Both the position numbers and the translations under genes were made by a program. A DNA stretch of 45,528 bases from NCBI GenBank assembly GCA_021162285.1, contig JAGGYZ010000299.1, positions 1 through 45,528 on the forward strand, given 5' to 3'. The notes beneath the pieces are model-generated. The model was not told the DNA's origin. It did not search any database and saw nothing but the letters and a program-made list of their open reading frames with translations. Positions 7,478-25,467 of this stretch are shown here, one piece after another. The stretch is from Candidatus Fermentibacteraceae bacterium. GTDB taxonomy: Bacteria > Fermentibacterota > Fermentibacteria > Fermentibacterales > JCC-6. Within the stretch, counting starts at the first letter, position 1. Every line of letters begins with the position of its first letter.

Positions 7478-8518
7478 TTAACGCATGTATCCCTTCCGAA
7501 ACCGGCTGTGGTACAGGATCTGCAGTTTACGGAACAGATTCAGAGGTTTCCGCCTTGTTCCCACAGGTTCTTCAGGGTCTATTGTAGATAGAAGATCAAT
7601 AATACCCTTTGATATGTTTCCGTCCAGCCTGGGATTTACCTGTTCAAGATGACGCTTCCGATTGTTTGAAAACTCCCCTGGATTCAGTAATGATCTATCC
7701 AGTGCAGCCCTGAGCTCCCGGGGCTCCTGTATGTTGACACCCTTGTCTTTTCTCGCAAGTGTTCTGAAGGTTACAACCGGTTTGTCCAAAACCATAAACT
7801 CGTAGATCACAGATGACGTATCTGAAACCATCACATCCGCCAGGTAAAGATACGGCGTGATGTCATAATCGGTGATAAGGCGAAAGTGCTGTTTGTCTGC
7901 AATTCCGTTTACAAGAGATCTGTCCATGAATTCGTGTGGCTTGCACAGCCAGATCTCATCCGGTTTCATTGTTTTTTCTATTTCAGGAAGAAGCAGCGTC
8001 GCAGACTGCATGGTTCTGCTGTGTGTGGGAGAATAGAGGATAACCTTCCTGCCTGCAGGGATATCGTACCTTTCTTTAAGGTCTGTCGTGTCGTATTTCA
8101 GTATGTGGTCTATCTTGGGCCACCCGGTTTCCACAATTCTGAAGTATTTGTTTTTCTTCTGCATCTGTGTAAATCGCCTGGTCACAACCGGCCCTGATGT
8201 AAGGTACATGTCGAAGAAGTGCCTTATTCTGTAGTGAGAAGGCTTCTCAACACCTATACCGTGGAAAAGCTCTACTTTTATCCCCGGCAGGCGGAAATCC
8301 ACAAAATTCCCGGGGCACAGAACAAAGTCAGGCTTGAAAGCGGTCGCACTCTTTAAATCTGTAAAAACCGGTAGAGCTGAAATTTCATCGGGAAGACTTT
8401 TCTTTACCTTTGAACTTGCGAAAAGGGCGATTTTCACCCCTCTGCGTTCTGCCTCCTTCACCAGAGGCTGTACAACTGGAACAGAGTAGAGTTTTGAAAC
8501 ATAGAACAGCAGTTTCAT
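7478..8518 (-). CDS. CDP-glycerol glycerophosphotransferase family protein (TagB/TagF-like), paralog 4
   Basis: 346 aa. Signatures RKVILYSPTHS, LCKPHEF and VMVSDTSSVIYEFMVLDKPVV. Its ATG shares 1 nt with the tagD stop (TGATG at 8518). Confidence 0.72.
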   Translation of the reverse strand: MKLLFYVSKLYSVPVVQPLVKEAERRGVKIALFASSKVKKSLPDEISALPVFTDLKSATAFKPDFVLCPGNFVDFRLPGIKVELFHGIGVEKPSHYRIRHFFDMYLTSGPVVTRRFTQMQKKNKYFRIVETGWPKIDHILKYDTTDLKERYDIPAGRKVILYSPTHSRTMQSATLLLPEIEKTMKPDEIWLCKPHEFMDRSLVNGIADKQHFRLITDYDITPYLYLADVMVSDTSSVIYEFMVLDKPVVTFRTLARKDKGVNIQEPRELRAALDRSLLNPGEFSNNRKRHLEQVNPRLDGNISKGIIDLLSTIDPEEPVGTRRKPLNLFRKLQILYHSRFRKGYMR

Positions 8519-8919
8519 CAGGTAATTGACTTGCCGTTCTTTACTGTATTCCTGATGGATGTTGTTGAAATACTTTTCGTTCTGGGCAGGTACACCACCT
8601 CACAGTAGTCCTTCAGAAAATCAAACTTTCCAGCCCAGTCTTCCCCTATAACAAAAATGTCTATGGAATGCTTTCTGATATCATCAATTTTCTGTTCCCA
8701 GCTGGTTTCAGGAATCACTTCGTCTACACAGCGGATAGCTTCAACTATCTGCGCTCTGTGAGAATACGGATACACACACTGCTTGTGTTTACCTGTATTG
8801 AATTCATCTGTTGAAACAGCGACCACAAGGTAGTCGCCGAGAGATTTTGCCCGTTTCAGAATGTTTAGATGACCTATGTGAAACAGATCGAATGTTCCGT
8901 ATGTGATTACCTTTTTCAT
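8518..8919 (-). CDS. tagD: Glycerol-3-phosphate cytidylyltransferase
   Basis: The ORF track starts at 8955. I prefer ATG 8917-8919 (MKKVITYGTFDLFHIGHLNILKRAKSLGDYLVVAVSTDEFN), which lies just after the upstream stop at 8925-8927. It has the HxGH cytidylyltransferase motif and the typical TagD length (133 aa). Confidence 0.88.
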   Translation of the reverse strand: MKKVITYGTFDLFHIGHLNILKRAKSLGDYLVVAVSTDEFNTGKHKQCVYPYSHRAQIVEAIRCVDEVIPETSWEQKIDDIRKHSIDIFVIGEDWAGKFDFLKDYCEVVYLPRTKSISTTSIRNTVKNGKSIT

Positions 8920-8924
8920 TGGAG

Positions 8925-9818
8925 CTACCAGCCAATCCTGATAAGGGTTGCCCACTGTTCAAGAAACTTCGTGTCTCCTGGTGCAGGCTCCCCTCCCCAT
9001 CCGTTGAATGCTCCCTTTCTGTCCAGTCCTATCACCGGTATACCCAGTGCTCTGGCATGTATCCAGAGATCCCGGTCTGTTGTAGCCACAGCAGAAGCAC
9101 CGGCAACCATGGCAGCCAGCAGACCGACACTTGTCTCTGGAGGAATAGCAGTGCTCTTACCGTCGACGAGGACGATCTTGAGTGGAACTTCCGCCCTCTT
9201 TCTCTCCAGTACATTTGCCGCTGCTTCAGTGGCCAGAATATAGGGCAGAGTACGGTGAGACACAGGAGACAGAACTGATGAAGCCTTCTCTGCAAGGATG
9301 CCGGGCACCGTGGGTTTCCAGACTGTATCTGTTTCCATTTTTAGAACTTTCATTAAATCATAGATGCCACCGGGAAAGACAACATCAGAACTTGTTTTAA
9401 CTCTGATGTTCACTGCAGGATGCTTTTGTGTGGAAACACAGGCAAGAGGGGACGCCTTCTCCACAAAACGAAGCAGATCGTCTCCCGGCTGGGGAGAAAA
9501 CATAAGAACACCTTCAGGAACAGCTGGATCAACGAACCCGGGATCGTTTGTGTATATGTGCATCTGCGGTGTTACCGGTAGAAATCCGGCAAGCTCAGCC
9601 ACGCTGCTGTGAGCTACAAAATGAACCGGAACGCCGGAGTACACATTCTGAAGTGCCCTGGCCATGTACACAGCCGACCATGCTGAGGAGATATCTGAAG
9701 AAGAGAATACTCCAACTGCTTCAGGTTCCAGAACATCAGACGGGAACTTGAAATCACTCCAGTTTGAAGAAACTCTGGTGACTCTTCGTTTACCAAAGAG
9801 ATTTCTTATGAATTTCAC
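8925..9818 (-). CDS. Hypothetical protein, possibly a degenerate GT9-like (GT-B fold) protein
   Basis: 297 aa. The C-terminal segment VGLLAAMVAGASAVATTDRDLWIHARALGIPVIGL parallels the GT9 pattern (...DSGPMHLAAALGxPxVxLFG). The N-terminal half loosely parallels the GT9 N-domain. Canonical residues are not evident. GTGA overlap with the upstream gene. Confidence 0.3.
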   Translation of the reverse strand: MKFIRNLFGKRRVTRVSSNWSDFKFPSDVLEPEAVGVFSSSDISSAWSAVYMARALQNVYSGVPVHFVAHSSVAELAGFLPVTPQMHIYTNDPGFVDPAVPEGVLMFSPQPGDDLLRFVEKASPLACVSTQKHPAVNIRVKTSSDVVFPGGIYDLMKVLKMETDTVWKPTVPGILAEKASSVLSPVSHRTLPYILATEAAANVLERKRAEVPLKIVLVDGKSTAIPPETSVGLLAAMVAGASAVATTDRDLWIHARALGIPVIGLDRKGAFNGWGGEPAPGDTKFLEQWATLIRIGW

Positions 9819-10483
9819 TGCTCAAATCCTTCCATAATACTCCGGGCTAGAGAAACTGCTGCGGGGTTTCCTGTATCTACAGAACTCAAAACTCTTGAAG
9901 ACTCTCCAAACTGTCCGGACACCTGAAGACACAGTCCGTACATAACTTCGCCCATGGCATCGCCAGGGTAACGAACTCTTATCAGGCGGGACAATTGAAG
10001 AGCGTCGGAGAACCTGCCTGCTTCCAGATAAGCGGAACACAGGTCTATACCGCTCCAGAAAGCCTTTCTGGCTGTAGAAGCTTCAGCAATTGACATTGTA
10101 AGCTCCTGTATCGCTATCCCGCTGTTTTCCGAGAACAATGCAGACAATCCACGAGCCCTGTGAAGAAGCCACGGATCAGATGGGTTCATCTGCTTCAGTT
10201 GTTCAGCAGCCAGCACCGGGAGTCCGGAAGTCCACGCAATCCTTGCCATCCAGAACTGCTGAAGATCAGAGTCGTGGCAGATGTTCTCAAGCTCGCTTGC
10301 AAGCAGAAAAGCTCTTCTGCCATCTCCGGCATAGATTGCTTCCTCTACAAGCCTTCCCATCACCCTGATCTGCCCGGACAGACTGCCCTCTTCCTCCCAG
10401 GCAGCACCTGCCTCCGGCAGCTTTCCAGCCAGCTCCAGGTCAAGTGGAGAGAAACACACAACAAAAAGCAGAACAGCAGTCAT
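9815..10483 (-). CDS. Hypothetical protein, helical-repeat (TPR-like) with N-terminal hydrophobic segment
   Basis: 222 aa, Ala/Leu-rich with repeated helical hairpin-like segments (for example AYLEAGRFSDALQLSRLIRVRYPGD). No family recognised. 4-nt overlaps at both ends. Confidence 0.4.
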   Translation of the reverse strand: MTAVLLFVVCFSPLDLELAGKLPEAGAAWEEEGSLSGQIRVMGRLVEEAIYAGDGRRAFLLASELENICHDSDLQQFWMARIAWTSGLPVLAAEQLKQMNPSDPWLLHRARGLSALFSENSGIAIQELTMSIAEASTARKAFWSGIDLCSAYLEAGRFSDALQLSRLIRVRYPGDAMGEVMYGLCLQVSGQFGESSRVLSSVDTGNPAAVSLARSIMEGFEQ

Positions 10484-11109
10484 TGCAGATACCTCTGTAT
10501 CAATCTTCTGCTGAATCTGAAATAACTCACAACACCCAGTACTACAGCAATCGGGGTAAGTATCTGTGCAGCCTGAGTCAGCTTCATGAAAATGCTCTTT
10601 TCAGGGTAAGCAAGCCCGCCGGCAGCGGTAAGAACCAGGACATAACTGAGAATGATTGTCAGCCTTTCACTTGTGGTGATGGCTACAACAGGTATTTTTA
10701 TACTCCAGGAGACAACCAGCAGACCCAGAACCACAGCTATGTGGTACCACGCAGGAATAAGGGCAAGAAGACCGTTTACCGCACCAAGCCGGGCAAGGAA
10801 GATCAGCATTACAGAGAGAAACAGTTTGTCTGCCAGAATATCAAGTGTTTTACCAGGGGTACTGGATTTTTTCAGCTTTCTTGCCAGCCAGCCGTCAACG
10901 TAGTCGCTTGCGGCAGCAACAAGGCACAGCAGAAACATTGTGATATAGTGATGATACCAGCCTGCCCAGACGCTGAAGGGAAGAATTACAATCCTGACCC
11001 ATGAAACCATAGCCGGAGCAACAGGAAGCTGTTCCTGTGTTTTCTTTATCATTTCTATGGTTTGAGAGAACTGTTCACGGTGTCTCTGCTGAGCTTCGCT
11101 GATTTTCAC
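10480..11109 (-). CDS. CDP-alcohol phosphatidyltransferase family protein
   Basis: 209 aa, multi-pass membrane protein. It contains the family motif D-x2-D-G-x2-A-R-x8-G-x3-D-x3-D (DYVDGWLARKLKKSSTPGKTLDILADKL). GTG start inside a GTGA overlap. A shorter start (MVSWVRIV...) is possible. Confidence 0.8.
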   Translation of the reverse strand: MKISEAQQRHREQFSQTIEMIKKTQEQLPVAPAMVSWVRIVILPFSVWAGWYHHYITMFLLCLVAAASDYVDGWLARKLKKSSTPGKTLDILADKLFLSVMLIFLARLGAVNGLLALIPAWYHIAVVLGLLVVSWSIKIPVVAITTSERLTIILSYVLVLTAAGGLAYPEKSIFMKLTQAAQILTPIAVVLGVVSYFRFSRRLIQRYLQ

Positions 11110-11802: not shown

Positions 11803-12606
11803 TCAAGATATTGTCTCCGCTCTGTAAATTATACCGGCTTCGCCCTGAAGCCACCAGCCGCTTTCGTCTTTTCCCACGGTAAGAAAAAGCCCGCTCTTCA
11901 CCGCTATTCTAACAGGTAGAGTTACAGAATCAAATCTTTCGGAGGCCACAAGAGCGCATGCTACAGCACCGGTTCCGCAGGCTAGAGTTTCACCCTCCAC
12001 ACCTCTCTCAAAGGTTCTGATCGACATCGATCCATCCTGCTGAACCTTTACCCAGTTTACATTCACACCTTCCGGTCCGAATTCATCATGCGATCTTATT
12101 ACATGAGCATATTCTTCAAAAGTCCCGTCTTTAATATTTTCACTGAAAACAACTGCATGGGGCACGCCGGTGTCTGCAAAGCCTGCACCGATAACAATAC
12201 CCTCTGCAACATCAATTGCCTTCTCCAGGTAATGAAGAATCGGCTCAGTCATCCAGATTCTTGCTTCTCTGTTTCCGGTAACGCTGCCTTTGTGGACTCC
12301 AGCATCACTTACAAAAGTGAATTCAACTCCTGTTTCTACCATTCCCAGCTCTGCTGCAAACCGGCAGATGCACCTTGCTCCGTTGCCGCACATGCTCGCG
12401 GCTCTGCCGTCTGAATTGTAGTACTTCATGGCGAAGGCGTGAACAGAATCATCTGTTATCTCTATAAGCCCGTCTGCCCCGACAGAAAGACCTCTCCTGC
12501 AGAGTTCTGAAATTTTTTCACGGTTCAGTAATCGGGAAAGACTGCCGTCGCGGTTATCAACCATAATGAAATCGTTCCCGGCACCGCTCATTTTTGTAAA
12601 TTTCAT
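11803..12606 (-). CDS. dapF: Diaminopimelate epimerase
   Basis: 267 aa. MKFTKMSGAGNDFIMVDNRDG N-terminus. Both catalytic Cys contexts are present (SMCGNGARC and LACGTGAVA). Confidence 0.9.
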   Translation of the reverse strand: MKFTKMSGAGNDFIMVDNRDGSLSRLLNREKISELCRRGLSVGADGLIEITDDSVHAFAMKYYNSDGRAASMCGNGARCICRFAAELGMVETGVEFTFVSDAGVHKGSVTGNREARIWMTEPILHYLEKAIDVAEGIVIGAGFADTGVPHAVVFSENIKDGTFEEYAHVIRSHDEFGPEGVNVNWVKVQQDGSMSIRTFERGVEGETLACGTGAVACALVASERFDSVTLPVRIAVKSGLFLTVGKDESGWWLQGEAGIIYRAETIS

Positions 12607-14738
12607 AGGTTTTGTGTTCCCATTCTTTCAATGATTTCCATGTGATATTCTGCTTTGTCGAAAAGGTTGTTGTTCCGAAGCAGCCTCACCAGATCGAAAC
12701 GAAGCTGCGGATCCGGTCCCCAGCAGTCCAGGTATGCAACAAAATCCTCCTCCAGCTCGTCGATAGAGTAGTCTCCCGCCAGATGAGCCTGAAGAAGTTC
12801 CTGCAGAAGACCTACTGCAGCATCTGCGGGTACCTCATCAGGTGATCCCGATAAAAGCAGCAGAGCTGCCGAAATCTTCTGGAAGTCACCTGTTTCCATG
12901 CCCTGGTCTGCCAGGTAAATGGCCGTTTCAACAGGCGAGTTCACAACTGCACCTGCAATTTCCCTGTCATCCAGGAAAGGTGCGTAACGAACTTCCCAGA
13001 GTGGTTGACGGGGTAATCCTTCAATGCTTCCGTTAAGACTGTATACCCTTATGGAAGGTCCCTGCCAGACGATTCCAAGGCTTTCAAGAGACTGAGGATA
13101 GTAGTGAAGCCTTACTGCAAGACAACCATCGGGAATCTCTGTGAGACCTGCCAGATAGACAAGACCCTGTGGAGACCTGTCAAAAACAAAGTCGGCCTGG
13201 TAGATAAGATATTCGGCACCCTTGTCCTCCATGAAGGCTACCATTTCCTGTTCGGTTCCAAAGATTTTCCCGGCAAATTCAATGATAGTTTCCCGGTTTT
13301 CTGTGTTTTCAAAAAAGGTGTGCGTAACCACCGGCATATCTGCATAAGCTGAAAGCAGACCTGAAATGTGCCAGAAGGAAAGCACTGTTCCCCGGTTGTC
13401 TTCCGCCCACCCGATGAGCCCTGTGAGTTCATCCTCTGCAAGAAGAGATGACGAGTCTTCAAAAGTCAACCCTGCATCTGACAGCAAACCTGCAATTTCC
13501 GGGGCGTACATTGTCTGCAGTCCAAATGCTGTAAGAACAACAGGAAGAGCCCACCTGCGGTTTCTGCATACGGCCACCACCGGCGGAATAATCCCAATGG
13601 CCAGAACAACCAGGAGTCTGTCGAAAAACAGGTATCCGGCAACTGAAAGAGGTACAAGGAAATACATCAGCGACTGTCCGGTCTTCTCCCTGAACCGTTT
13701 CCACCCCAGAGCCGCTGCGAGAACTGCCACTCCGAACAGAAGCACCATCTGCCCTGACGACGGAGAAGTGTAACCGCTTACCCAGAAAAGACGAGCATCA
13801 CCTGAAAGTAAAGCAGGGTTTTCGGGGTGACTGAACATGAATTTGAGTTTTGCCGCTATCACCGAGGCCACATGACCGCCTGAAGAAGATCTGAAAAAGA
13901 AACCGGAGGCTAAAGAAACAGCCAGACCTGTCCAGGGAACAATTCTGCTTCGGTACACCGATGAAACCACAGCAGCAACAGCCATCAGAACAGCAGGAGA
14001 ATAAATGGCTCCATCGTGACGCATATGGCTTAGAACAACAGAAGCAAGCAACTGACTTACAGCAAGAGGCAGGACTGTTTTAAGCCCCGGCCTTCTGAAG
14101 GTCATCCACACAAAAACAAAGAATGACAAATACCCTGTAACCTTCCATGATGCCAGAGCCAGAAACAGCACCAGTGCCGCTGTAACAGAGTATTTCAGTG
14201 TTTGTTTCTTCCTGCTGCTCATATCTATGAGAGCAAATGTAAGTACAATCAGAGGAAGGGCCACAGTTTCACGATAGAAACTTTCCCCCCGAGCCCTGAG
14301 AAGTGCCGGGAGAAATACGGCGTAGAGTGCTGCACCGGAGAAAGATTCCTGGAAGGAAAAATTTGAATTTAGCATCCAGTAGAAAATTACAGGAACAACC
14401 AGAAGAGGAAACAGGAGACAAAACACATGGAGGAAGCCGTCAAGGTCACCGCCTGTTACGCTGTGAATTCCACCTGCAATGTACTCTTCAAAGATAGAAT
14501 TCTCGGCCGTTATCAAACCCTGTGGACGCATAACCAGCGTATCAACAGCAGGAATACCGCTGCCGTTTGAAACCATCCTCGTATACCTGTAAGCCTGGGT
14601 TGTCTCCCCCTGCATTCTGGGTGGAGGAGGCATAACTGATGTGGCAAAAACACTCCGGAAAACAAAACCGCCCGCTACCAGGAACAGCAGAAGCAGAGCT
14701 GTACGGAGTTTTGACCTGCTGTCAGCCTGTGCGTGCAT
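12603..14738 (-). CDS. Polytopic GT-C-like membrane protein with C-terminal soluble domain; divergent STT3/AglB/PglB-like (tentative)
   Basis: The ORF track starts at 14804. ATG 14736-14738 (MHAQADSR...) reduces the overlap with the upstream GTPase gene to 17 nt. There are about 11-13 hydrophobic helices followed by a soluble region of about 290 aa. The segment LIGWAEDNRGTVLSFWHISGLLSAYADMPVVTHTFFEN...AEYLIY sits just after the last helix. It parallels the STT3 pattern (W..en.....vlsWWDYGy.i.......t.aDn.....Yv.v), but WWDYG is replaced by SFWHIS. Confidence 0.45.
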   Translation of the reverse strand: MHAQADSRSKLRTALLLLFLVAGGFVFRSVFATSVMPPPPRMQGETTQAYRYTRMVSNGSGIPAVDTLVMRPQGLITAENSIFEEYIAGGIHSVTGGDLDGFLHVFCLLFPLLVVPVIFYWMLNSNFSFQESFSGAALYAVFLPALLRARGESFYRETVALPLIVLTFALIDMSSRKKQTLKYSVTAALVLFLALASWKVTGYLSFFVFVWMTFRRPGLKTVLPLAVSQLLASVVLSHMRHDGAIYSPAVLMAVAAVVSSVYRSRIVPWTGLAVSLASGFFFRSSSGGHVASVIAAKLKFMFSHPENPALLSGDARLFWVSGYTSPSSGQMVLLFGVAVLAAALGWKRFREKTGQSLMYFLVPLSVAGYLFFDRLLVVLAIGIIPPVVAVCRNRRWALPVVLTAFGLQTMYAPEIAGLLSDAGLTFEDSSSLLAEDELTGLIGWAEDNRGTVLSFWHISGLLSAYADMPVVTHTFFENTENRETIIEFAGKIFGTEQEMVAFMEDKGAEYLIYQADFVFDRSPQGLVYLAGLTEIPDGCLAVRLHYYPQSLESLGIVWQGPSIRVYSLNGSIEGLPRQPLWEVRYAPFLDDREIAGAVVNSPVETAIYLADQGMETGDFQKISAALLLLSGSPDEVPADAAVGLLQELLQAHLAGDYSIDELEEDFVAYLDCWGPDPQLRFDLVRLLRNNNLFDKAEYHMEIIERMGTQNL

Positions 14739-15300
14739 GGCGCTTGGCCATCTGGGTAGCAATAATTTTAAGAGTTTCCGCAGGACCGCTACCGCCGATG
14801 GCAACTGACTCCACAGTAGGCCACTGGAACCTGTTCAGTTCTTCATTCATTCTAGCGGTAGACATAATTCCGGGAAGATCGCGTTTGTTGAACTGCAGAA
14901 CCATGGGAATCATGGACATGTCCAGGCCGTAGCTTTTCAGGTTGTGTTCCAGATCATCTATGGTACTGATGTTTGCCTCCGCCCTTTCCTTCTGACTGTC
15001 AGCAACGAAAACAACTCCGTCTATGCCGTCAAGAATTACCCTTCTGCTGAGTGCATAATACGCCTGACCGGGCACAGAATACAGGTGGAGTTTGATTTTC
15101 ATGTCTCCGATTCTGGCGAAATTCACAGGAAGAAAGTCGAAAAACACTGTTCTTTCGCACCTCGTACAGAGAGTTACAAGTCTTCCTCTGTTTTCCGGGG
15201 CAATGATGTCGCGTATCCCCCTGAGATTGGTTGTCTTTCCGGAAAGCCCGGGACCGTAGTAGACTATTTTGTATGCAACCTCATCACCTGACCTGTGCAT
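14722..15300 (-). CDS. MglA-family Ras-like small GTPase, paralog 1
   Basis: The ORF track starts at 15369, inside hslU. I prefer ATG 15298-15300, preceded by AGGGGGAGGG. Signatures: P-loop YYGPGLSGKTTNL, ERTVFFDFLP, LYSVPGQ (MglA-type G3 instead of DTAGQ), FNKRDL. Confidence 0.8.
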   Translation of the reverse strand: MHRSGDEVAYKIVYYGPGLSGKTTNLRGIRDIIAPENRGRLVTLCTRCERTVFFDFLPVNFARIGDMKIKLHLYSVPGQAYYALSRRVILDGIDGVVFVADSQKERAEANISTIDDLEHNLKSYGLDMSMIPMVLQFNKRDLPGIMSTARMNEELNRFQWPTVESVAIGGSGPAETLKIIATQMAKRHARTG

Positions 15301-16636: not shown

Positions 16637-17181
16637 GGTTTTTTGAGTTCGCATATTTCCTCCGACATGATCTTGCCACCTGTATAAATACATATTTCGC
16701 TTGCTATTACAATAGCTTCTCTCGCTATTTTCAGAGGTCCCATTCTGGTATGCTTCATAAGAGACCTTGCCGCAGCAATTGCATAGGGAGATCCGGAACC
16801 CACCGAAACGATACCGTCAGGCGACTCGACTACCTCTCCAGAGCCTCCAATGACAAGGGCGTGATGGCTGTCCACTGCTGCGATCATGGCGTTGAGCTCC
16901 CGGAGGTACTTGTCTGCTCTCCACTCCCGTGCAAGCTCCATGGAAGCTCTCGGAAGATTACCGCGAAAGGCTTCAAGTTTCTCCTCCAGCCTTTCCACCA
17001 GTGCAAAAGCATCTGCACCGGCACCGGAAAAGCCAACGAGAACAGTTCCTCCGCTGAGTTTTCGCAGTTTTCTGGCACTCATCTTCATGATGGTATCACC
17101 AAGGGTAACCTGACCATCTGCCGCCATTGCAGCTTTTCCGTTTCTTACAATACCGATAACCGTGGTTGACTTAATGTTCAT
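16633..17181 (-). CDS. hslV: ATP-dependent protease subunit HslV
   Basis: The ORF track extends to 17406, into the upstream gene. ATG 17179-17181 (ATGA overlap with the upstream stop) gives a 182-aa protein, MNIKSTTVIGIVRNGKAAMAADGQVTLG..., with GSGSPYAIAAARSL. The conserved TT is preceded by a 5-residue extension. Confidence 0.9.
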   Translation of the reverse strand: MNIKSTTVIGIVRNGKAAMAADGQVTLGDTIMKMSARKLRKLSGGTVLVGFSGAGADAFALVERLEEKLEAFRGNLPRASMELAREWRADKYLRELNAMIAAVDSHHALVIGGSGEVVESPDGIVSVGSGSPYAIAAARSLMKHTRMGPLKIAREAIVIASEICIYTGGKIMSEEICELKKP

Positions 17182-20123
17182 TGCTCCTCCAGCAGATGAG
17201 CCAGCGTGTTTCCTGTTATTTCTATGGACAGTGCATACTCTTCGCTGATTCCAAGATCGTTTACAAGAACAGCATAGGCAAGCCCTGTGTATCCGTTGCC
17301 GGCAAGGCTTACCGCTCTTGCTTCCGATGAGAATGTTTGTGTGGAAAGCAGGAACCACAGAGCTATTTCCTTTGCGTGATCGGGGTCGGCAACAAACCTG
17401 TCGCAAAGATCATTGATCAACTGTGCTTCACGCTGAGTTTTCATCTGAGAAACCATGATATTTCCAAGAGAAACAGCCGCCATCACCCCTCCTCTGGCCG
17501 CGAGTCCGGCCATTTCAACTGCTATGGATGCGGCTGTAATATCCTGTTTCCATTCAAGTGCCGCACTTTCCTGATCAGTGTGATTGAATACGAATGCGAG
17601 GGCAGTGTCAAGCATACTGAGACCAGTGTTGACAGGACTGTAAATGGTGTACTGATCCACCGTCTGCGCCATAAGATCGAGCACTGGCTGGTATTCCGAA
17701 CCCCATCCTGCCTGAAGATCCGACAGCAGTTCTCTGGCTGCAATGTAGTTTCCGAATGAAAGGTCTTTCTCTATGCGTATCCATTCCTGTGCAGGAGAAC
17801 CGTCGCTGATAAAATCGATGACGCCGTCAAAAGCTGACTCCTGTTCAAACTCACCGGCCACAGCTGCAAGCTGAGACGAGGCGGCAGCGGCAGTGGAGTT
17901 GTTGTATTCAACTGCCATACTGTCCATGTATGCCGTTGCCTGCTGAACGTAGTCTATTGCCGCATCAGCACCGTCCCTGCCGTGAATAAACCTTGCCTTC
18001 AGCAGAACAAAACCGGGCATGATACTGAGCCATTCCTCCGGCATGGCTGAAAACACAGCCTCAGACCTTTCCAGACACACGCCGACCATTTCCGTGTTGC
18101 CCTCAGCCATAAACTGATATGCGAGACGGTTGTAGGCACTGACATAGTTCCTTGCGATCTGGATTGCCTGATCGTCCTTGTAGACAGAAGGATCTGCAAG
18201 GCCTGTGGTAAGAAAACTGTCTGCAAGGGGCCATCCCAGATCGGTATTTACAAGCTTACGGACAGGCTCGTGCATTACTCTGAAAGCAATTCCCTGCATC
18301 TGGAGATAGCTCTCTACATAACTTCTGTTCTCCCCTGAAACTGTTCCGGCAATCATTACTTCCCTGCCGTGAATACTTCTGTTTCTGAGCATATCGATAA
18401 GAAGAAGATCCTGCATGGGAATTGAACCCTGGCTTCCTCTTCCCATTGATGGAACCGGTATGCTTGTGTTACCGTCATTCAGCACCCACGGCCACTGACC
18501 GTTAAATGTGTCGTCAAGCACCTGCCTGTCATACTCTCCTGTGACCGGCAGCCCTTCCGATGAAACATGAAAGAAATTGGGACCCCAGATAAATATGGGC
18601 TGCATGTTGTCAATAGTTTCCTGTGAATAGCTGAGAAGATCAGGGTCTTTTGCAACAAGCTGCTCCACATACCATCTTGTATTCATCAGACTCAGATTGG
18701 AAATGATCACATCACGGCGAATCCCAAGCACTCCCTGAGCAAACCACAGTGGAAAAGTATCGTTGTCTCCGTTGGTGATTATCACCGCATTTTCCGGGCA
18801 TGACTGCAACAGGTTGATGCCGTAATCACGCGCAGCATAATCACCTGAGCGGTCACAATAATGCCAGTTCATTCCCAGAGATATAAGTGGAAAAACAACC
18901 ATCACCCATGCAGCGTTCTTCACTGCTCTGCTCTTTGCCGAGGTAAACAGTGAACCCATACCGATCATGGACAAAACGGCAAAGAAAATGAAAGATGCTC
19001 CGAAAAAGTAATCTCTCTCGCGAACTTCACCCAGCGATGTTCCCTCGGGTCCTGTCTTAAAATTCAGATACACCACAAAGGCGAAACTCGCCATGATAAA
19101 AGACAACCCCACAAGAACCAGAAGATCCGGCCGTCTTTTTCCCATAACCACAAGGCCGGTAACTGCAAGAACGGCCATTCCCATCCAGAGAAATGCCCAC
19201 ACTACACCGCCTGGAGTTCCCAGGGCGCCTGTCCATGCCTCCGGTCTTCCCACCTGCCAGGACAGGTATTCTGCAAACAGTCCCAGCTGATCCTGAAATG
19301 GTCCTTTTCTGTTGAGAATAGAGACCTGTCCGTACTGCTTTCTCTCAATGGCTTCCTTGAATTCAGTCCATACAGAGGGATTAGTTTCGTTGATTTCAGG
19401 GTTTTGTATCGCCCGGATAGGCATGTAAAGGTGAATGCTGAAGGCAAGAGCCATAAGACCCAGAAACATCACAGGAAACCCCGGAGATTTCCACTCAAAT
19501 GCTTTCTTTCTAACAGCGTACAGTACATACATTGCCACAATAGGAAGGGTAACGATAAGAGCACTGAGATGGTTTCCTATTGCAAGTGTCATAAGGTAAC
19601 CGGTGAGTAACAGCTGGCGACCAGCAGGTCTGCCGTGAAGCCTTCTCTCTATCCACAGGTCAAAAACCCACAGAATAAGAAGGGAAAGAAGGGCTGCCAT
19701 TGCGTAGGTTTCAGTTGCATTGTTGTTTCTCCATACGGTGTAGCTGAAAGCAGCCATAAGTGCTCCTGCAACGGAAACCGGTCTGTAGAGCCACGGCTCA
19801 AACCCCAGCCTTACGCTCCACCTCTGTATAAGCCTTGCCACAAGACCGATGGTAACTGTTCCTGCGATTGCGCACATAAGGTTAACCCTTGCGGCTATTG
19901 AGGGGATGAAACTGAACAGCAGAGTACTTACTCTCCCCATAAGCACAAAGAAAGGTACTCCCGGCGGATGTGGAATCCCCACAACCCACGAGCAGGTAAT
20001 GTACTCACCACTGTCCCAGAAGCTGACGGATGGCGCCAGGGTAACTGCGTAAACGGTAAAAGCGGCCATGGCTGCAGCCAGTGCAACGAGCCTGTCTGTT
20101 GTAAATGCACCTTTGATATTCAC
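17178..20123 (-). CDS. DUF2723 (TMEM260-like, GT-C fold) membrane protein with long C-terminal helical domain
   Basis: 981 aa. The N-terminal signature TLAPSVSFWDSGEYITCSWVVGIPHPPGVPFF is characteristic of DUF2723. There are about 11 or more hydrophobic helices in the first ~440 aa, then a soluble domain of about 500 aa with a helical-repeat appearance. GTG start in a GTGA overlap with xerC. Its stop overlaps the hslV ATG. Confidence 0.7.
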   Translation of the reverse strand: MNIKGAFTTDRLVALAAAMAAFTVYAVTLAPSVSFWDSGEYITCSWVVGIPHPPGVPFFVLMGRVSTLLFSFIPSIAARVNLMCAIAGTVTIGLVARLIQRWSVRLGFEPWLYRPVSVAGALMAAFSYTVWRNNNATETYAMAALLSLLILWVFDLWIERRLHGRPAGRQLLLTGYLMTLAIGNHLSALIVTLPIVAMYVLYAVRKKAFEWKSPGFPVMFLGLMALAFSIHLYMPIRAIQNPEINETNPSVWTEFKEAIERKQYGQVSILNRKGPFQDQLGLFAEYLSWQVGRPEAWTGALGTPGGVVWAFLWMGMAVLAVTGLVVMGKRRPDLLVLVGLSFIMASFAFVVYLNFKTGPEGTSLGEVRERDYFFGASFIFFAVLSMIGMGSLFTSAKSRAVKNAAWVMVVFPLISLGMNWHYCDRSGDYAARDYGINLLQSCPENAVIITNGDNDTFPLWFAQGVLGIRRDVIISNLSLMNTRWYVEQLVAKDPDLLSYSQETIDNMQPIFIWGPNFFHVSSEGLPVTGEYDRQVLDDTFNGQWPWVLNDGNTSIPVPSMGRGSQGSIPMQDLLLIDMLRNRSIHGREVMIAGTVSGENRSYVESYLQMQGIAFRVMHEPVRKLVNTDLGWPLADSFLTTGLADPSVYKDDQAIQIARNYVSAYNRLAYQFMAEGNTEMVGVCLERSEAVFSAMPEEWLSIMPGFVLLKARFIHGRDGADAAIDYVQQATAYMDSMAVEYNNSTAAAASSQLAAVAGEFEQESAFDGVIDFISDGSPAQEWIRIEKDLSFGNYIAARELLSDLQAGWGSEYQPVLDLMAQTVDQYTIYSPVNTGLSMLDTALAFVFNHTDQESAALEWKQDITAASIAVEMAGLAARGGVMAAVSLGNIMVSQMKTQREAQLINDLCDRFVADPDHAKEIALWFLLSTQTFSSEARAVSLAGNGYTGLAYAVLVNDLGISEEYALSIEITGNTLAHLLEEQ

Positions 20124-23218: not shown

Positions 23219-24661
23219 TTATTCAATGGCGGAAAGCCATAGAGCCACAGGACCGCTGACAGACTCCCAGCAGCTCTCTCTGTAACCCATGATATTCTGA
23301 AACTGTCTTGGACTGAGAATACCTGCTACCTCAGAGAAAGCCTCGTGCACCAGACTGTATACAACAGCCTCCTGGTAGCGGTTTTCTCTGTATATAAGTA
23401 CCAGCTGGTCGATGTCTGCAGGTTCCAGCATGGCCGCCGCATCCCTCATGAGACGAATTCTTACTTCTGCTTCTTCCGGATGAAGAATCACCATAACCAC
23501 AACGGTTGTAGAGTCTTCATAAACCAGAAATGCCCCGTCATCCACCACGATCGGAATTGCTGACGCAAGCAGCTCCAGCTTGCTGAACACTACCTCACTG
23601 CTTTCAACGGAAACTTCTGCATCTGTGTTCCGGGGAGCTCTGGTCTGAAAACTGATGGATACTGGATTCTCTGCAGGTATACAACTGTCTGGCAGAACAA
23701 TAAACCGCAGACCAAAAGGATCCTCAACAGCAAGAGAATCACTCTTTACTGACAACGTATCTGCCGGTACACCATCTATATCCGTAGAATCCGGTGATGT
23801 AGTAATTCCGGTGCTGATTGAATCCTGACCCGAAACACCGGATGTATCAGCAGAAACCAACCCGGTGTTAGATGTGGAATTCCCGGTAACCGTCGAGAAA
23901 AGATTCAGCGGATCAATGAAGTAAAATACGGCAGCCAGAGCAAGCACAAGAAAAACAGCGACCACCGTTTTCAAAACAGTTGATCCTGCACCTGTTTTTT
24001 CACTGACAGGCTGTTCCGTATCAAATTCAAGGCCCTCTCTGTTCTCTGCGGTGACACCTTTATTGGGTCTGTCTACAGATTTTCCATCTCTGGCACAGTG
24101 ACTGCATACATGAGCCACTCTGTCAAAGCAATTCCTGCAGGTAAGTTGCCCGCATGTTCTGCACGGTGCAAGTCTCTCGCCGTCTGTTGGTGTTCTTCCA
24201 CAAATGTGGCACCTTGCCGTAGAGAGAATTTCCTCGCTTGCAGAAGTAATTACAATTGGTTCCTCTTCCTCTTCCTCAACTGCAGGCTGCTGAACTGTCT
24301 CTTCACTCTGTGCATCCCCGGGCTTTTCCGTGGTTTCTACCCCGGGTTCAGCCTCAGTTCCCTCAGGATTGACTGTTCCTCCTGAAGAATCCAGGACAAC
24401 TCCAGACGGTGATTCTTCACTGATACCAGCCTCGTCCTCCAGGCGGGGAAGAAGATCGATATAGGGATAAAGATCCTTCTGAATAACCCTTGCCTCGTTC
24501 ATTGGAACGGCTTCTTTGATCACCGATGGCGAGTTGTTAACAGCATTCTCAGCCTCTGTCACCGAAAGATCAAGACTAGTAATGAGAAGTTTTAAAACTT
24601 TCTTCTTTTCCTCTTCTCTTCCCAGTCTCACAAGCAGCAGATCAACAAAAGAATCAGACAT
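23219..24661 (-). CDS. Uncharacterised bitopic membrane protein: L7/L12-CTD-like N-domain, acidic linker, 4x CxxC zinc module, one TM helix, Ser/Thr-rich spacer, C-terminal extracytoplasmic domain
   Basis: 480 aa. Residues 1-70 (KKKVLKLLITSLDLSVTEAENAVNNSPSVIKEAVPMNEARVIQKDL) parallel the ribosomal L7/L12 C-terminal domain pattern (KxxVIKxVRxxTGLGLKEAKxLVExxPxxxKExVxKxxAExxKxxL). Cys residues 151/154, 167/170, 175/178 and 186/189 form four CxxC pairs. TM helix at about 229-249 (LKTVVAVFLVLALAAVFYFI). Its ATG shares 1 nt with the mglA stop at 24661. Confidence 0.6.
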   Translation of the reverse strand: MSDSFVDLLLVRLGREEEKKKVLKLLITSLDLSVTEAENAVNNSPSVIKEAVPMNEARVIQKDLYPYIDLLPRLEDEAGISEESPSGVVLDSSGGTVNPEGTEAEPGVETTEKPGDAQSEETVQQPAVEEEEEEPIVITSASEEILSTARCHICGRTPTDGERLAPCRTCGQLTCRNCFDRVAHVCSHCARDGKSVDRPNKGVTAENREGLEFDTEQPVSEKTGAGSTVLKTVVAVFLVLALAAVFYFIDPLNLFSTVTGNSTSNTGLVSADTSGVSGQDSISTGITTSPDSTDIDGVPADTLSVKSDSLAVEDPFGLRFIVLPDSCIPAENPVSISFQTRAPRNTDAEVSVESSEVVFSKLELLASAIPIVVDDGAFLVYEDSTTVVVMVILHPEEAEVRIRLMRDAAAMLEPADIDQLVLIYRENRYQEAVVYSLVHEAFSEVAGILSPRQFQNIMGYRESCWESVSGPVALWLSAIE

Positions 24662-25263
24662 CAGGCTCTTCCCTCCAGTATTTCAAATTGTCTGTGCAGC
24701 CTTGCTATTACCATCCTACTCACCCTGCGCAGGGTCTCAAATACGCCTTTGCCTTCCGATGCCACTGATTCAAGACATGCAACACGGGACAATCCCAGTT
24801 CACGAACAATCTCATCCACAGGAATAGCATCATGCAAGTCCCTCTTGTTGCACTGTAGAACAAGACTGACACCCTTCCTTCTCTGGTTGCGGAGATTCTC
24901 TTTCAGGTCTCTGAGACTTGCAATGTTGGCATCCATTCTTGACTCCTGAGAATCGGCAACAAAAACAATACCGTCAACACCCTGAAGAATCAGTCGGCGA
25001 CTGTCTGAATACATAGCCTGACCGGGAACACTGTAAAGATGCAGACGGATCTTGAAACCATTGATCTCTCCGGAATCCAGCGGGAGGAAATCAAAAAACA
25101 GAGTTCTATCGTTGCCAGCGGCCAGAGAAATCAGTTTTCCCCTGGAATCTGAATCAACCTGACTGTGAATGTATTTTACATTTGTTGTCTTCCCTGACAA
25201 CCCCGGACCTGCATACACGATCTTGCAGTCAATTTCCTTAGCACTGTAGCTCACAGTAGCCAT
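24661..25263 (-). CDS. mglA: MglA-type Ras-like small GTPase, paralog 2
   Basis: 200 aa. By my recollection it is close along its whole length to Myxococcus MglA: EIDCKIVYAGPGLSGKTTNVKYI, GKLISLAAGNDRTLFFDFLPL, RLHLYSVPGQAMY, GVDGIVFVADSQ, QCNKRDL, GVFETL. Confidence 0.85.
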   Translation of the reverse strand: MATVSYSAKEIDCKIVYAGPGLSGKTTNVKYIHSQVDSDSRGKLISLAAGNDRTLFFDFLPLDSGEINGFKIRLHLYSVPGQAMYSDSRRLILQGVDGIVFVADSQESRMDANIASLRDLKENLRNQRRKGVSLVLQCNKRDLHDAIPVDEIVRELGLSRVACLESVASEGKGVFETLRRVSRMVIARLHRQFEILEGRA

Positions 25264-25269
25264 AAAGTA

Positions 25270-25467
25270 TTACTCCTCGCTCTGCTCTTTATTTTCGTCT
25301 TCCCTGCTAGTTTCATCAGATTTGATATCAATGTCTTTCAAACCCTTCTTGAACTGACTCATGGATTTTCCAACAGCTCTGGCAATGTCGGGAATCCTCT
25401 TTGCTCCGAAAAGAAGAAGAAGCACCACAAGAATCAGCACAAGCTCGGTGGTTCCAATACGACCCAA
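25270..25467 (-). CDS. tatA: Twin-arginine translocase subunit TatA/E
   Basis: 65 aa. M-GRIGTTELVLILVVLLLLFGAKRIPDIARAVGKSMSQFKKGLKD, followed by an acidic tail. TTG start preceded by a G-rich SD. Confidence 0.85.
   Translation of the reverse strand: MGRIGTTELVLILVVLLLLFGAKRIPDIARAVGKSMSQFKKGLKDIDIKSDETSREDENKEQSEE

Follow-up and report, generated by a model that had tools for sequence, protein, structure and literature searches.

We analyzed a 45.5-kb contig from a metagenome-assembled genome of Candidatus Fermentibacteraceae (45,528 nucleotides; the whole stretch is the window referred to below). On its minus strand it carries mglA1, encoding a small GTPase, followed by the gene for a 480-amino-acid (aa) bitopic membrane protein that we call X. 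Among Ras-like polarity switches of bacteria, MglA serves as the model, and the regulators known for it, MglB and RomR/RomX, are soluble proteins of the Roadblock or response-regulator kind. A sequence-only reading of the window had described an mglA with the full set of MglA signatures and no Roadblock-like open reading frame (ORF) beside it, whose stop codon shares a nucleotide with the start of a gene for a protein of no assignable family. That protein was drawn as an L7/L12-like head, an acidic linker, four CxxC pairs, one transmembrane (TM) helix, a Ser/Thr-rich spacer and a C-terminal domain predicted to be extracytoplasmic. Every part of this outline is borne out below; the accompanying proposal, that the L7/L12-like domain docks MglA in place of or in addition to MglB, is supported in part.

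mglA1 is followed by a membrane-protein gene throughout Fermentibacteria

The mglA1 gene (24661..25263, minus strand) encodes 200 aa with the P-loop GPGLSGKTT, the stretch DRTLFFDFLP containing the intrinsic Arg finger, the G3 motif SVPGQ and the G4 motif NKRD. Using phmmer, residues 1-190 aligned with the solved MglA structures of T. thermophilus (3t12_A, E=3.5e-64) and M. xanthus (E=2.9e-61). Group 1 of the MglA family is marked by two features, the intrinsic Arg finger and a G3 motif of the form (T)VPGQ (Wuichet and Søgaard-Andersen, 2014; PMC4316618). Since MglA1 aligns end to end with MglA and has both the Arg finger and a VPGQ-type G3, we assign it to Group 1. It also retains the equivalents of G21, R53 and Q82. 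On this sequence evidence, MglA1 is a genuine and catalytically complete Group-1 MglA.

Within the phylum Fermentibacteria, whose members are uncultured, MglA1 proteins are 72-97% identical; beyond it, identity falls abruptly to 60% or less. The clade consensus holds ERT and PGQ; in G3, Ser in place of Thr (SVPGQ for TVPGQ) is fixed clade-wide. Three substitutions in switch I/II are likewise fixed: E50G, V83A and A87D (Thermus numbering). In Thermus MglA, the switch I/II region is the MglB contact region, and the β2 hydrophobic patch formed by L55, F56, F57 and F59 (LFFDF) also touches MglB (PMC3199381). The LFFDF patch of MglA1 is identical to that of Thermus.

The ATG of X and the stop codon of mglA1 have base 24661 in common, so that the coding strand reads TGATG. 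In all of the ~60 loci in which the 5′ end of X and the sequence upstream of it are present, mglA1 lies immediately upstream of X. The sequence-only reading had named conservation of the pair in relatives as a check on its proposal, and the pair is kept in each of these assessable Fermentibacteria loci. Automatic placement of both gene ends succeeded in 53 loci, and in these we measured the stop/start spacing. Of the 53, 32 have the TGATG overlap of one base, most others fell between -17 and +19 nt, and two had a spacing of +85 nt.

X (23219..24661, minus strand) and a protein that NCBI lists as a "hypothetical protein" of Candidatus Fermentibacteraceae are 100% identical. Homologs came from a word-index search (108 proteins) and from 60 species-level genome loci, and wherever a name is given, they belong to Fermentibacteria, Sabulitectum, Aegiribacteria or Hyd24-12. 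An exhaustive search of 1.84 billion representative proteins with an X profile recovered ~16 full-length representatives, most of them Fermentibacteria-family proteins already present in the word-index set, and no full-length X from outside Fermentibacteria. In these searches, X is an uncharacterised single-phylum family that exists only in Fermentibacteria. Across the phylum, X proteins are 31% to 88% identical; the best-conserved segments are the head (residues 1-75) and the zinc module. The conservation figures given below for X refer to an alignment of 80 family members. A comparison of the family profile with PDB sequences returned nothing useful.

The head of X is a homolog of the L7/L12 C-terminal domain

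The head of X, residues 1-75 (24437..24661, minus strand), resembles the C-terminal domain (CTD) of ribosomal protein L7/L12 in both sequence and predicted structure. The Pfam profile PF00542 (Ribosomal_L12) matches residues 16-64 with E=2.5e-5 and 24.9 bits, just under its cutoff of 25.9. The same profile matches 41 of the 80 family members at E≤0.01, and PF00542 is assigned, as a precomputed annotation, to two database members. An AlphaFold2 (AF2) model of the head, with a predicted local distance difference test score (pLDDT) above 90, has the order β-α-α-β-α-β (E5-10, H16-30, H34-42, E46-53, H54-64 and E68-72). The E. coli L7/L12 CTD structure 1ctf is among its two best Foldseek matches (TMt 0.80, root-mean-square deviation [rmsd] 1.7 Å, 68 columns, 25% identity, probability 1.00), and other L12 structures come next; identity to solved L7/L12 is 22-26%. 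ClpS structures rank below L12 (TMt 0.6-0.7, 9-14% identity), and no Pfam match to ClpS was found in X or the 80 family members. By profile and by modelled fold, the head is a homolog of the L7/L12 CTD, as had been proposed for the first ~70 residues. The N-terminal dimerisation/L10-binding domain of L7/L12 is not present in X, whose CTD-like domain begins at residue 5. The L7/L12 profile TIGR00855 covers only X residues 14-64 (profile positions 65-115 of 125), with 21 bits against a cutoff of 84.4.

On the ribosome, the L7/L12 CTD contacts translational GTPases. We take the EF-Tu/EF-G contact set of E. coli L12 to comprise (K65), V66, I69, K70, R73, L80 and E82, in helices 4/5. In an alignment of X with the E. 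coli and Thermotoga L12 CTDs, K65 corresponds to K19 (94% conserved), V66 to K20, I69 to L23 (46%), K70 to K24 (40%), R73 to I27, L80 to V34 and E82 to E36 (74%). The equivalents of K65, E82, A83 and P91 are kept. The head has its own set of invariant residues in the family alignment: D7, R12, E17/E18, R58, Q61, D69, P72 and R73. By this alignment the presumed factor-contact surface is only partly kept, L23 and K24 being poorly conserved and other positions replaced. Together with the invariant polar set, this argues against X merely mimicking the stalk for translation factors. The polar set fits a repurposed binding surface, although it does not by itself point to a ligand.

L12-type domains also turned up in two other proteins that are not ribosomal. 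P0263 (1056 aa) and P0264 (268 aa) carry seven and three tandem L7/L12-CTD repeats, respectively (PF00542 E=5.8e-123 and 2.6e-58). These repeats indicate that other lineages, too, employ the stalk CTD in proteins other than ribosomal L7/L12.

X joins the head to a zinc module, a membrane helix and a predicted periplasmic domain

The head is followed by an acidic, disordered linker of variable length (residues 76-144; 24230..24436, minus strand) with 21 Asp/Glu, a single Lys/Arg and a pLDDT below 50. It leads into an eight-cysteine zinc module (residues 145-195; 24077..24229, minus strand) of the pattern RCHICG..x11..CRTC..x4..CRNC..x7..CSHC. The four CxxC pairs begin at residues 151, 167, 175 and 186 (nt 24211-24095). 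All eight cysteines (C151, C154, C167, C170, C175, C178, C186 and C189), together with H152 and H184, are invariant in the family alignment, and their spacing is compatible with a cross-brace.

Pfam returned only sub-threshold matches to the module (FYVE, RING, Prok-RING_2/4, B-box, ZZ and UBR-box); the best was FYVE, with E=0.007 and 16.8 bits where the cutoff is 27.8, and Prok-RING_2 scored E=0.03-0.9. The X profile also reached the protein P0247 through the zinc module (E=7.7e-7). P0247 itself exceeds the Prok-RING_2 cutoff of 22.4, with 31.0 bits for its zinc module alone and 23.6 bits for the whole protein. Most likely, the module is a remotely RING/FYVE-like finger that would hold two zinc ions in a cross-brace, as in the RING/FYVE/B-box class.

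P0247 is one of ~30 long, unrelated proteins (P0247-P0275) that the X profile reached via the zinc module alone (RCHxCG…C..CG.FTC..C). Their architecture consists of an N-terminal double zinc ribbon and TPR-like helices, often with beta-helix/NosD or Fib_succ_major domains. A conserved GDKNVIAGD…NEDETK stretch precedes the shared module, which occupies residues 80-165.

A single TM helix spans residues 228-249 (23915..23980, minus strand; hydropathy peak 2.5). Over the 80 members, Lys plus Arg averages 3.0 on its N-terminal side versus 0.3 on its C-terminal side. This bias predicts an N-in/C-out orientation, which the cysteine-rich zinc module on the N-terminal side fits and which agrees with the extracytoplasmic placement of the C-terminal domain.

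Beyond the helix lies a Ser/Thr/Asp-rich spacer, predicted to be extracytoplasmic (residues 250-314; 23720..23914, minus strand), with 23 Ser/Thr in 65 residues and an array of D-[ST]-[AILVMT] motifs. Each spacer (~60 residues) has 4.1 motifs on average versus 0.93 in shuffled sequences, while the rest of X has 0.48 per 100 residues. All 80 members exceed their own shuffle mean, and the third position prefers L>T>S>A>V>I. This motif is the O-glycosylation sequon of Bacteroidota, where it is used only on non-cytoplasmic regions (PMC12871550). The array therefore supports the outward topology, and its sequence hints that the X stalk may be glycosylated. Among the window's other membrane proteins there was no sequon enrichment (17 observed versus 15.5 expected; a small sample).

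The C-terminal domain (residues 315-480; 23222..23719, minus strand), predicted to be periplasmic, is a folded alpha/beta domain: AF2 modelled it alone with a pLDDT of 92.9 and a predicted TM-score (pTM) of 0.89. It has no relatives outside the X family in a hidden Markov model (HMM) search of the 1.84 billion representatives, and Pfam gave no match at E≤10. The PDB structures retrieved by Foldseek all matched weakly (E≥9e-3 and TM≤0.32, with an rmsd >10 Å in most cases), and BFVD also gave weak matches (best E=2e-3; TM≤0.38 over PDB and BFVD). Two candidate folds were rejected. The element order α-β-β-α-β-β suggested a hidden Roadblock/MglB domain, but no Roadblock or longin structure was retrieved from PDB. 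Matches to PD-(D/E)xK nucleases, which dominated the PDB results and recurred in BFVD, were weak; the element order differs, there is no conserved D…(D/E)xK motif, and a periplasmic location is predicted for the domain. The domain does have conserved polar residues (D374, H394-P-E396, R401, D418 and E426). As these do not make a nuclease motif and the structural matches are weak, we leave the fold unassigned.

mglB is absent near mglA1 but present beside the nearest outgroup mglA genes

The window contains no Roadblock ORF, either by Pfam on its small ORFs or when every ORF of 45 aa or more was searched with MglB queries by phmmer and HMM. The phmmer queries were two outgroup MglBs; the HMM combined these with an M. 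xanthus MglB sequence, which served as a query only. Across 60 Fermentibacteria loci, no MglB-like ORF was found within ±10 kb of X, the range searched, even at E≤10. The absence of a Roadblock-like gene beside mglA, read earlier from the window, extends to its relatives.

The nearest MglAs from outside Fermentibacteria are 58% identical to MglA1. In both of the nearest outgroup loci inspected (L003 and L004, one from Longimicrobiales), a PF03259 (Robl_LC7) gene lies directly upstream of mglA; these loci served as positive controls for mglB detection. A location within four genes of mglA is typical of mglB but not obligatory (PMC4316618).

The neighborhood contains a second mglA that overlaps a membrane-protein gene

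A paralog that the sequence-only reading did not mention, mglA2 (14722..15300, minus strand), encodes 192 aa from its ATG and is of Group-1 type, 47% identical to MglA1. Its 3′ end is overlapped by the start of Y (12603..14738, minus strand), which encodes a ~711-aa polytopic membrane protein, or one of 733 aa when read from an upstream TTG. The two genes are adjacent in all 41 assessable loci. Y has no Pfam match, and no similarity between X and Y was found. MglA1 and MglA2 have in common four states that are derived relative to the outgroup (F74L, T78S, V83A and N119D, Thermus numbering), which suggests that the mglA1/mglA2 duplication occurred within the phylum. The phylum has two pairs in which an mglA gene overlaps a membrane-protein gene, and neither has mglB nearby.

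Upstream of mglA1 lies tatA (25270..25467, minus strand; 65 aa), which ends 6 nt before it. tatA is directly upstream of mglA1 in 57-58 of ~60 loci, overlaps it in some, and is probably the first gene of a tatA-mglA1-X operon. We saw no tatC near tatA and mglA1. The genes around them on this strand form a long run: ptsI, a nucleotidyltransferase gene, two GT4 glycosyltransferase genes, a Hpre_diP_synt_I-like membrane-protein gene, a DUF4321-like gene, tatA, mglA1, X, topA, a xerC-type recombinase gene and a TMEM260-like gene.

Both mglA pairs belong to a ~21-kb block (window positions 11803-32911) that is collinear phylum-wide (loci L001-L064), down to 31% identity in X. Its order is HPF, HprK, HPr, PtsI, NTP-transferase, two GT4, Hpre_diP_synt_I-like, DUF4321-like, TatA, MglA1, X, TopA, XerC, TMEM260-like, HslV, HslU, MglA2 and Y. 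The sole real rearrangement that we saw is the loss of hslVU in three loci (L027, L028 and L030). Breaks in gene order were considered as a test of the mglA1-X pair; the apparent breaks proved to be over-extended ORF starts, and the block is essentially collinear.

The TMEM260-like membrane protein (981 aa; 17178-20123, minus strand), three genes downstream of X, is of the protein O-mannosyltransferase type (GT-C). Glyphos_transf, cytidylyltransferase and CDP-OH_P_transf genes are among several envelope glycan/teichoic-acid-type genes at 7478-11109. Any tie between these genes and the sequon-rich stalk of X would be speculative.

Interpretation of the mglA1-X pair

We favor, tentatively and with somewhat less than even confidence, a model in which X is a direct, phylum-specific inner-membrane partner of MglA1, acting as an effector or a regulator. 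In this model, mglA1 and X would be translated as a coupled pair, probably from the tatA-mglA1-X operon. X would sit in the inner membrane with its head, acidic tether and two-zinc finger in the cytoplasm and its sequon-rich stalk and alpha/beta domain in the periplasm. The cytoplasmic module would bind MglA1 in a nucleotide-dependent manner, most likely through the L7/L12-like head, by analogy with the recruitment of GTPases by the ribosomal stalk CTD. Through such binding, a site or signal in the envelope would become coupled to the GTPase switch, perhaps with type IV pilus polarity as the output: the hosts are diderm rods that have type IV pilus genes and no flagella (PMC5030696), which makes a polarity or pilus role for MglA plausible, though speculative. 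Binding itself, the domain responsible for it and the part that X plays, be it GTPase-activating protein (GAP), effector or tether, are inferences of this model.

Several features of the pair suggest such a partnership: mglA1 is always upstream of X, X is restricted to the phylum, its head is an L12-CTD homolog, conservation within X is highest in the head and the zinc module, mglB is not adjacent, and the switch regions of MglA1 carry fixed substitutions. The mglA2-Y pair, which repeats the overlap of an mglA gene with a membrane-protein gene, also suggests it. The Thermus precedent makes it plausible for a complete MglA such as MglA1, as Thermus MglA hydrolyzes GTP slowly on its own and an activating partner need only clamp its switch regions (PMC3199381).

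Other observations weigh against the partnership. Since mglA1 and X sit in a rigid, collinear block with unrelated housekeeping genes (topA, xerC, phosphotransferase system genes and hslVU), their adjacency is weak evidence for a functional link. The signals specific to the pair are the kept stop/start overlap, the confinement of X to the one lineage whose MglA1 has no mglB beside it, and the kind of domain that forms the head of X. MglAs without a neighboring mglB are not rare (59 of 449, ~13%; PMC4316618), and an mglB elsewhere in the genome would lie outside the ±10 kb that we searched; a complete Fermentibacteria chromosome is available (OY970370.1). We found no Rosetta-stone fusion of MglA to an X-type domain; one longer MglA (P0163, 290 aa) bears an unrelated tail. 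The head itself keeps the presumed L12 factor-contact surface only in part. In addition, the contacts of the L12 CTD on EF-G use the G′ subdomain, a part that MglA does not have.

A narrower version of the partnership is that X replaces MglB, with the L7/L12-like head serving as a GAP that clamps the MglA1 switches. MglB gives no catalytic residue in trans and instead stabilises the Arg and Gln of MglA itself (PMC3199381); in principle, therefore, a protein of unrelated fold could activate MglA in the same way. The lack of mglB within ±10 kb in ~60 loci, its presence beside the closest outgroup mglA genes and the substitutions in the MglA1 switches all fit a replacement. However, the mglB search covered ±10 kb only, the unchanged LFFDF patch fits retention of MglB equally well, and the L12 factor-contact residues, as we take them to be, are not conserved in the head. 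We consider this replacement unlikely.

Alternatively, X and MglA1 could be just co-transcribed neighbors, with the head acting on EF-Tu, EF-G, IF2 or RF3, or competing with the stalk, and in this way tethering or tuning translation at the membrane. The homology of the head to the stalk CTD (22-26% identity to solved L7/L12), the kept equivalents of K65, E82, A83 and P91, the existence of the non-ribosomal repeat proteins P0263 and P0264, and a regional gene order that is rigid whatever the function are all compatible with such a role. However, most of the hydrophobic factor-contact positions (V66, R73 and L80) are replaced, and the head has its own invariant polar set (D7, R12, E17/E18, R58, Q61 and D69). 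The one-base overlap with mglA1 is kept in most loci, and X is limited to one phylum whose MglA1 lacks an adjacent mglB. A role in translation also seems improbable to us.

It is very unlikely that X is a membrane signalling or turnover adaptor outside GTPase control, either an N-recognin/E3-type protein with a ClpS-like fold and a RING-like finger or an anti-sigma-like zinc-finger transducer: although the head also retrieves ClpS structures (TMt 0.6-0.7), the zinc module has sub-threshold RING, FYVE, Prok-RING and UBR-box matches and a bitopic build with a periplasmic domain is typical of transducers, identity to ClpS is 9-14% versus 22-26% for L12, Pfam finds L12 and not ClpS, and the conserved neighborhood has no sigma factor, Clp component or ubiquitin-like gene.

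If X is a direct partner of MglA1, a membrane protein bearing a homolog of the ribosomal GTPase-recruiting domain would be a new design for regulating small GTPases in prokaryotes. A non-ribosomal L7/L12-CTD domain would, for the first time, have a functional context, and there would be a route linking GTPase state to the cell envelope. The mglA2-Y parallel suggests that the pattern may be general in Fermentibacteria. A more far-reaching version, which we regard as doubtful, is that the head truly docks or activates MglA: the whole phylum would have re-used the GTPase-recruiting domain of the stalk on a membrane protein that takes the place of the Roadblock GAP in controlling a Ras-like polarity GTPase, and that wires this switch directly to a periplasmic, possibly O-glycosylated sensor domain. 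The anatomy of X is solid and its parallel with the ribosomal stalk striking; a functional link to MglA1 is proposed from gene context. A literature search found no paper that ties Fermentibacteria to MglA, or MglA to L12-type domains.

Comparison with known systems

Like the MglA/MglB module of M. xanthus and T. thermophilus, the locus encodes a Group-1 GTPase with the Arg finger, the catalytic Gln and the β2 patch, and the hosts are alike in their rod shape, lack of flagella and type IV pilus genes (PMC5030696). Unlike that module, mglA1 has tatA upstream instead of a Roadblock/LC7 gene, its coupled downstream gene encodes a bitopic membrane protein without a Roadblock fold, and the G3 motif of MglA1 is SVPGQ, not TVPGQ.

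The MglA of Bdellovibrio has a P-loop change that probably locks it in the GTP state, whereas MglA1 has its P-loop Gly, Arg finger and Gln intact. MglA1 resembles the orphan MglAs, SofG of M. xanthus and MglA of Bdellovibrio, in having no neighboring mglB (PMC4316618); those systems have no counterpart of X as a neighbor. The Group 1 Rup neighborhoods (PMC4316618) differ in that their GTPase is Rup, not MglA, and their extracytoplasmic domain is OmpA-like, with no L12-like or zinc module.

Domain by domain, the X head has the same β-α-α-β-α-β fold as the ribosomal L7/L12 CTD (PF00542, 1ctf). Unlike in L7/L12, the domain stands at the N terminus of a membrane protein and has an invariant polar set of its own. 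The zinc module is like Prok-RING_2 and FYVE fingers in its eight invariant cysteines, its cross-brace-compatible spacing and its profile link through P0247; unlike members of those families, X itself falls below the threshold of every Pfam zinc-finger family.

MglA1 is an ordinary Group-1 MglA, and MglAs without an adjacent mglB are already known; what is new at this locus is the candidate partner gene X. Coupled to mglA, it encodes a product predicted to join an L7/L12-CTD homolog to a two-zinc finger of RING-like type, a single TM helix and, in the periplasm, an orphan domain.

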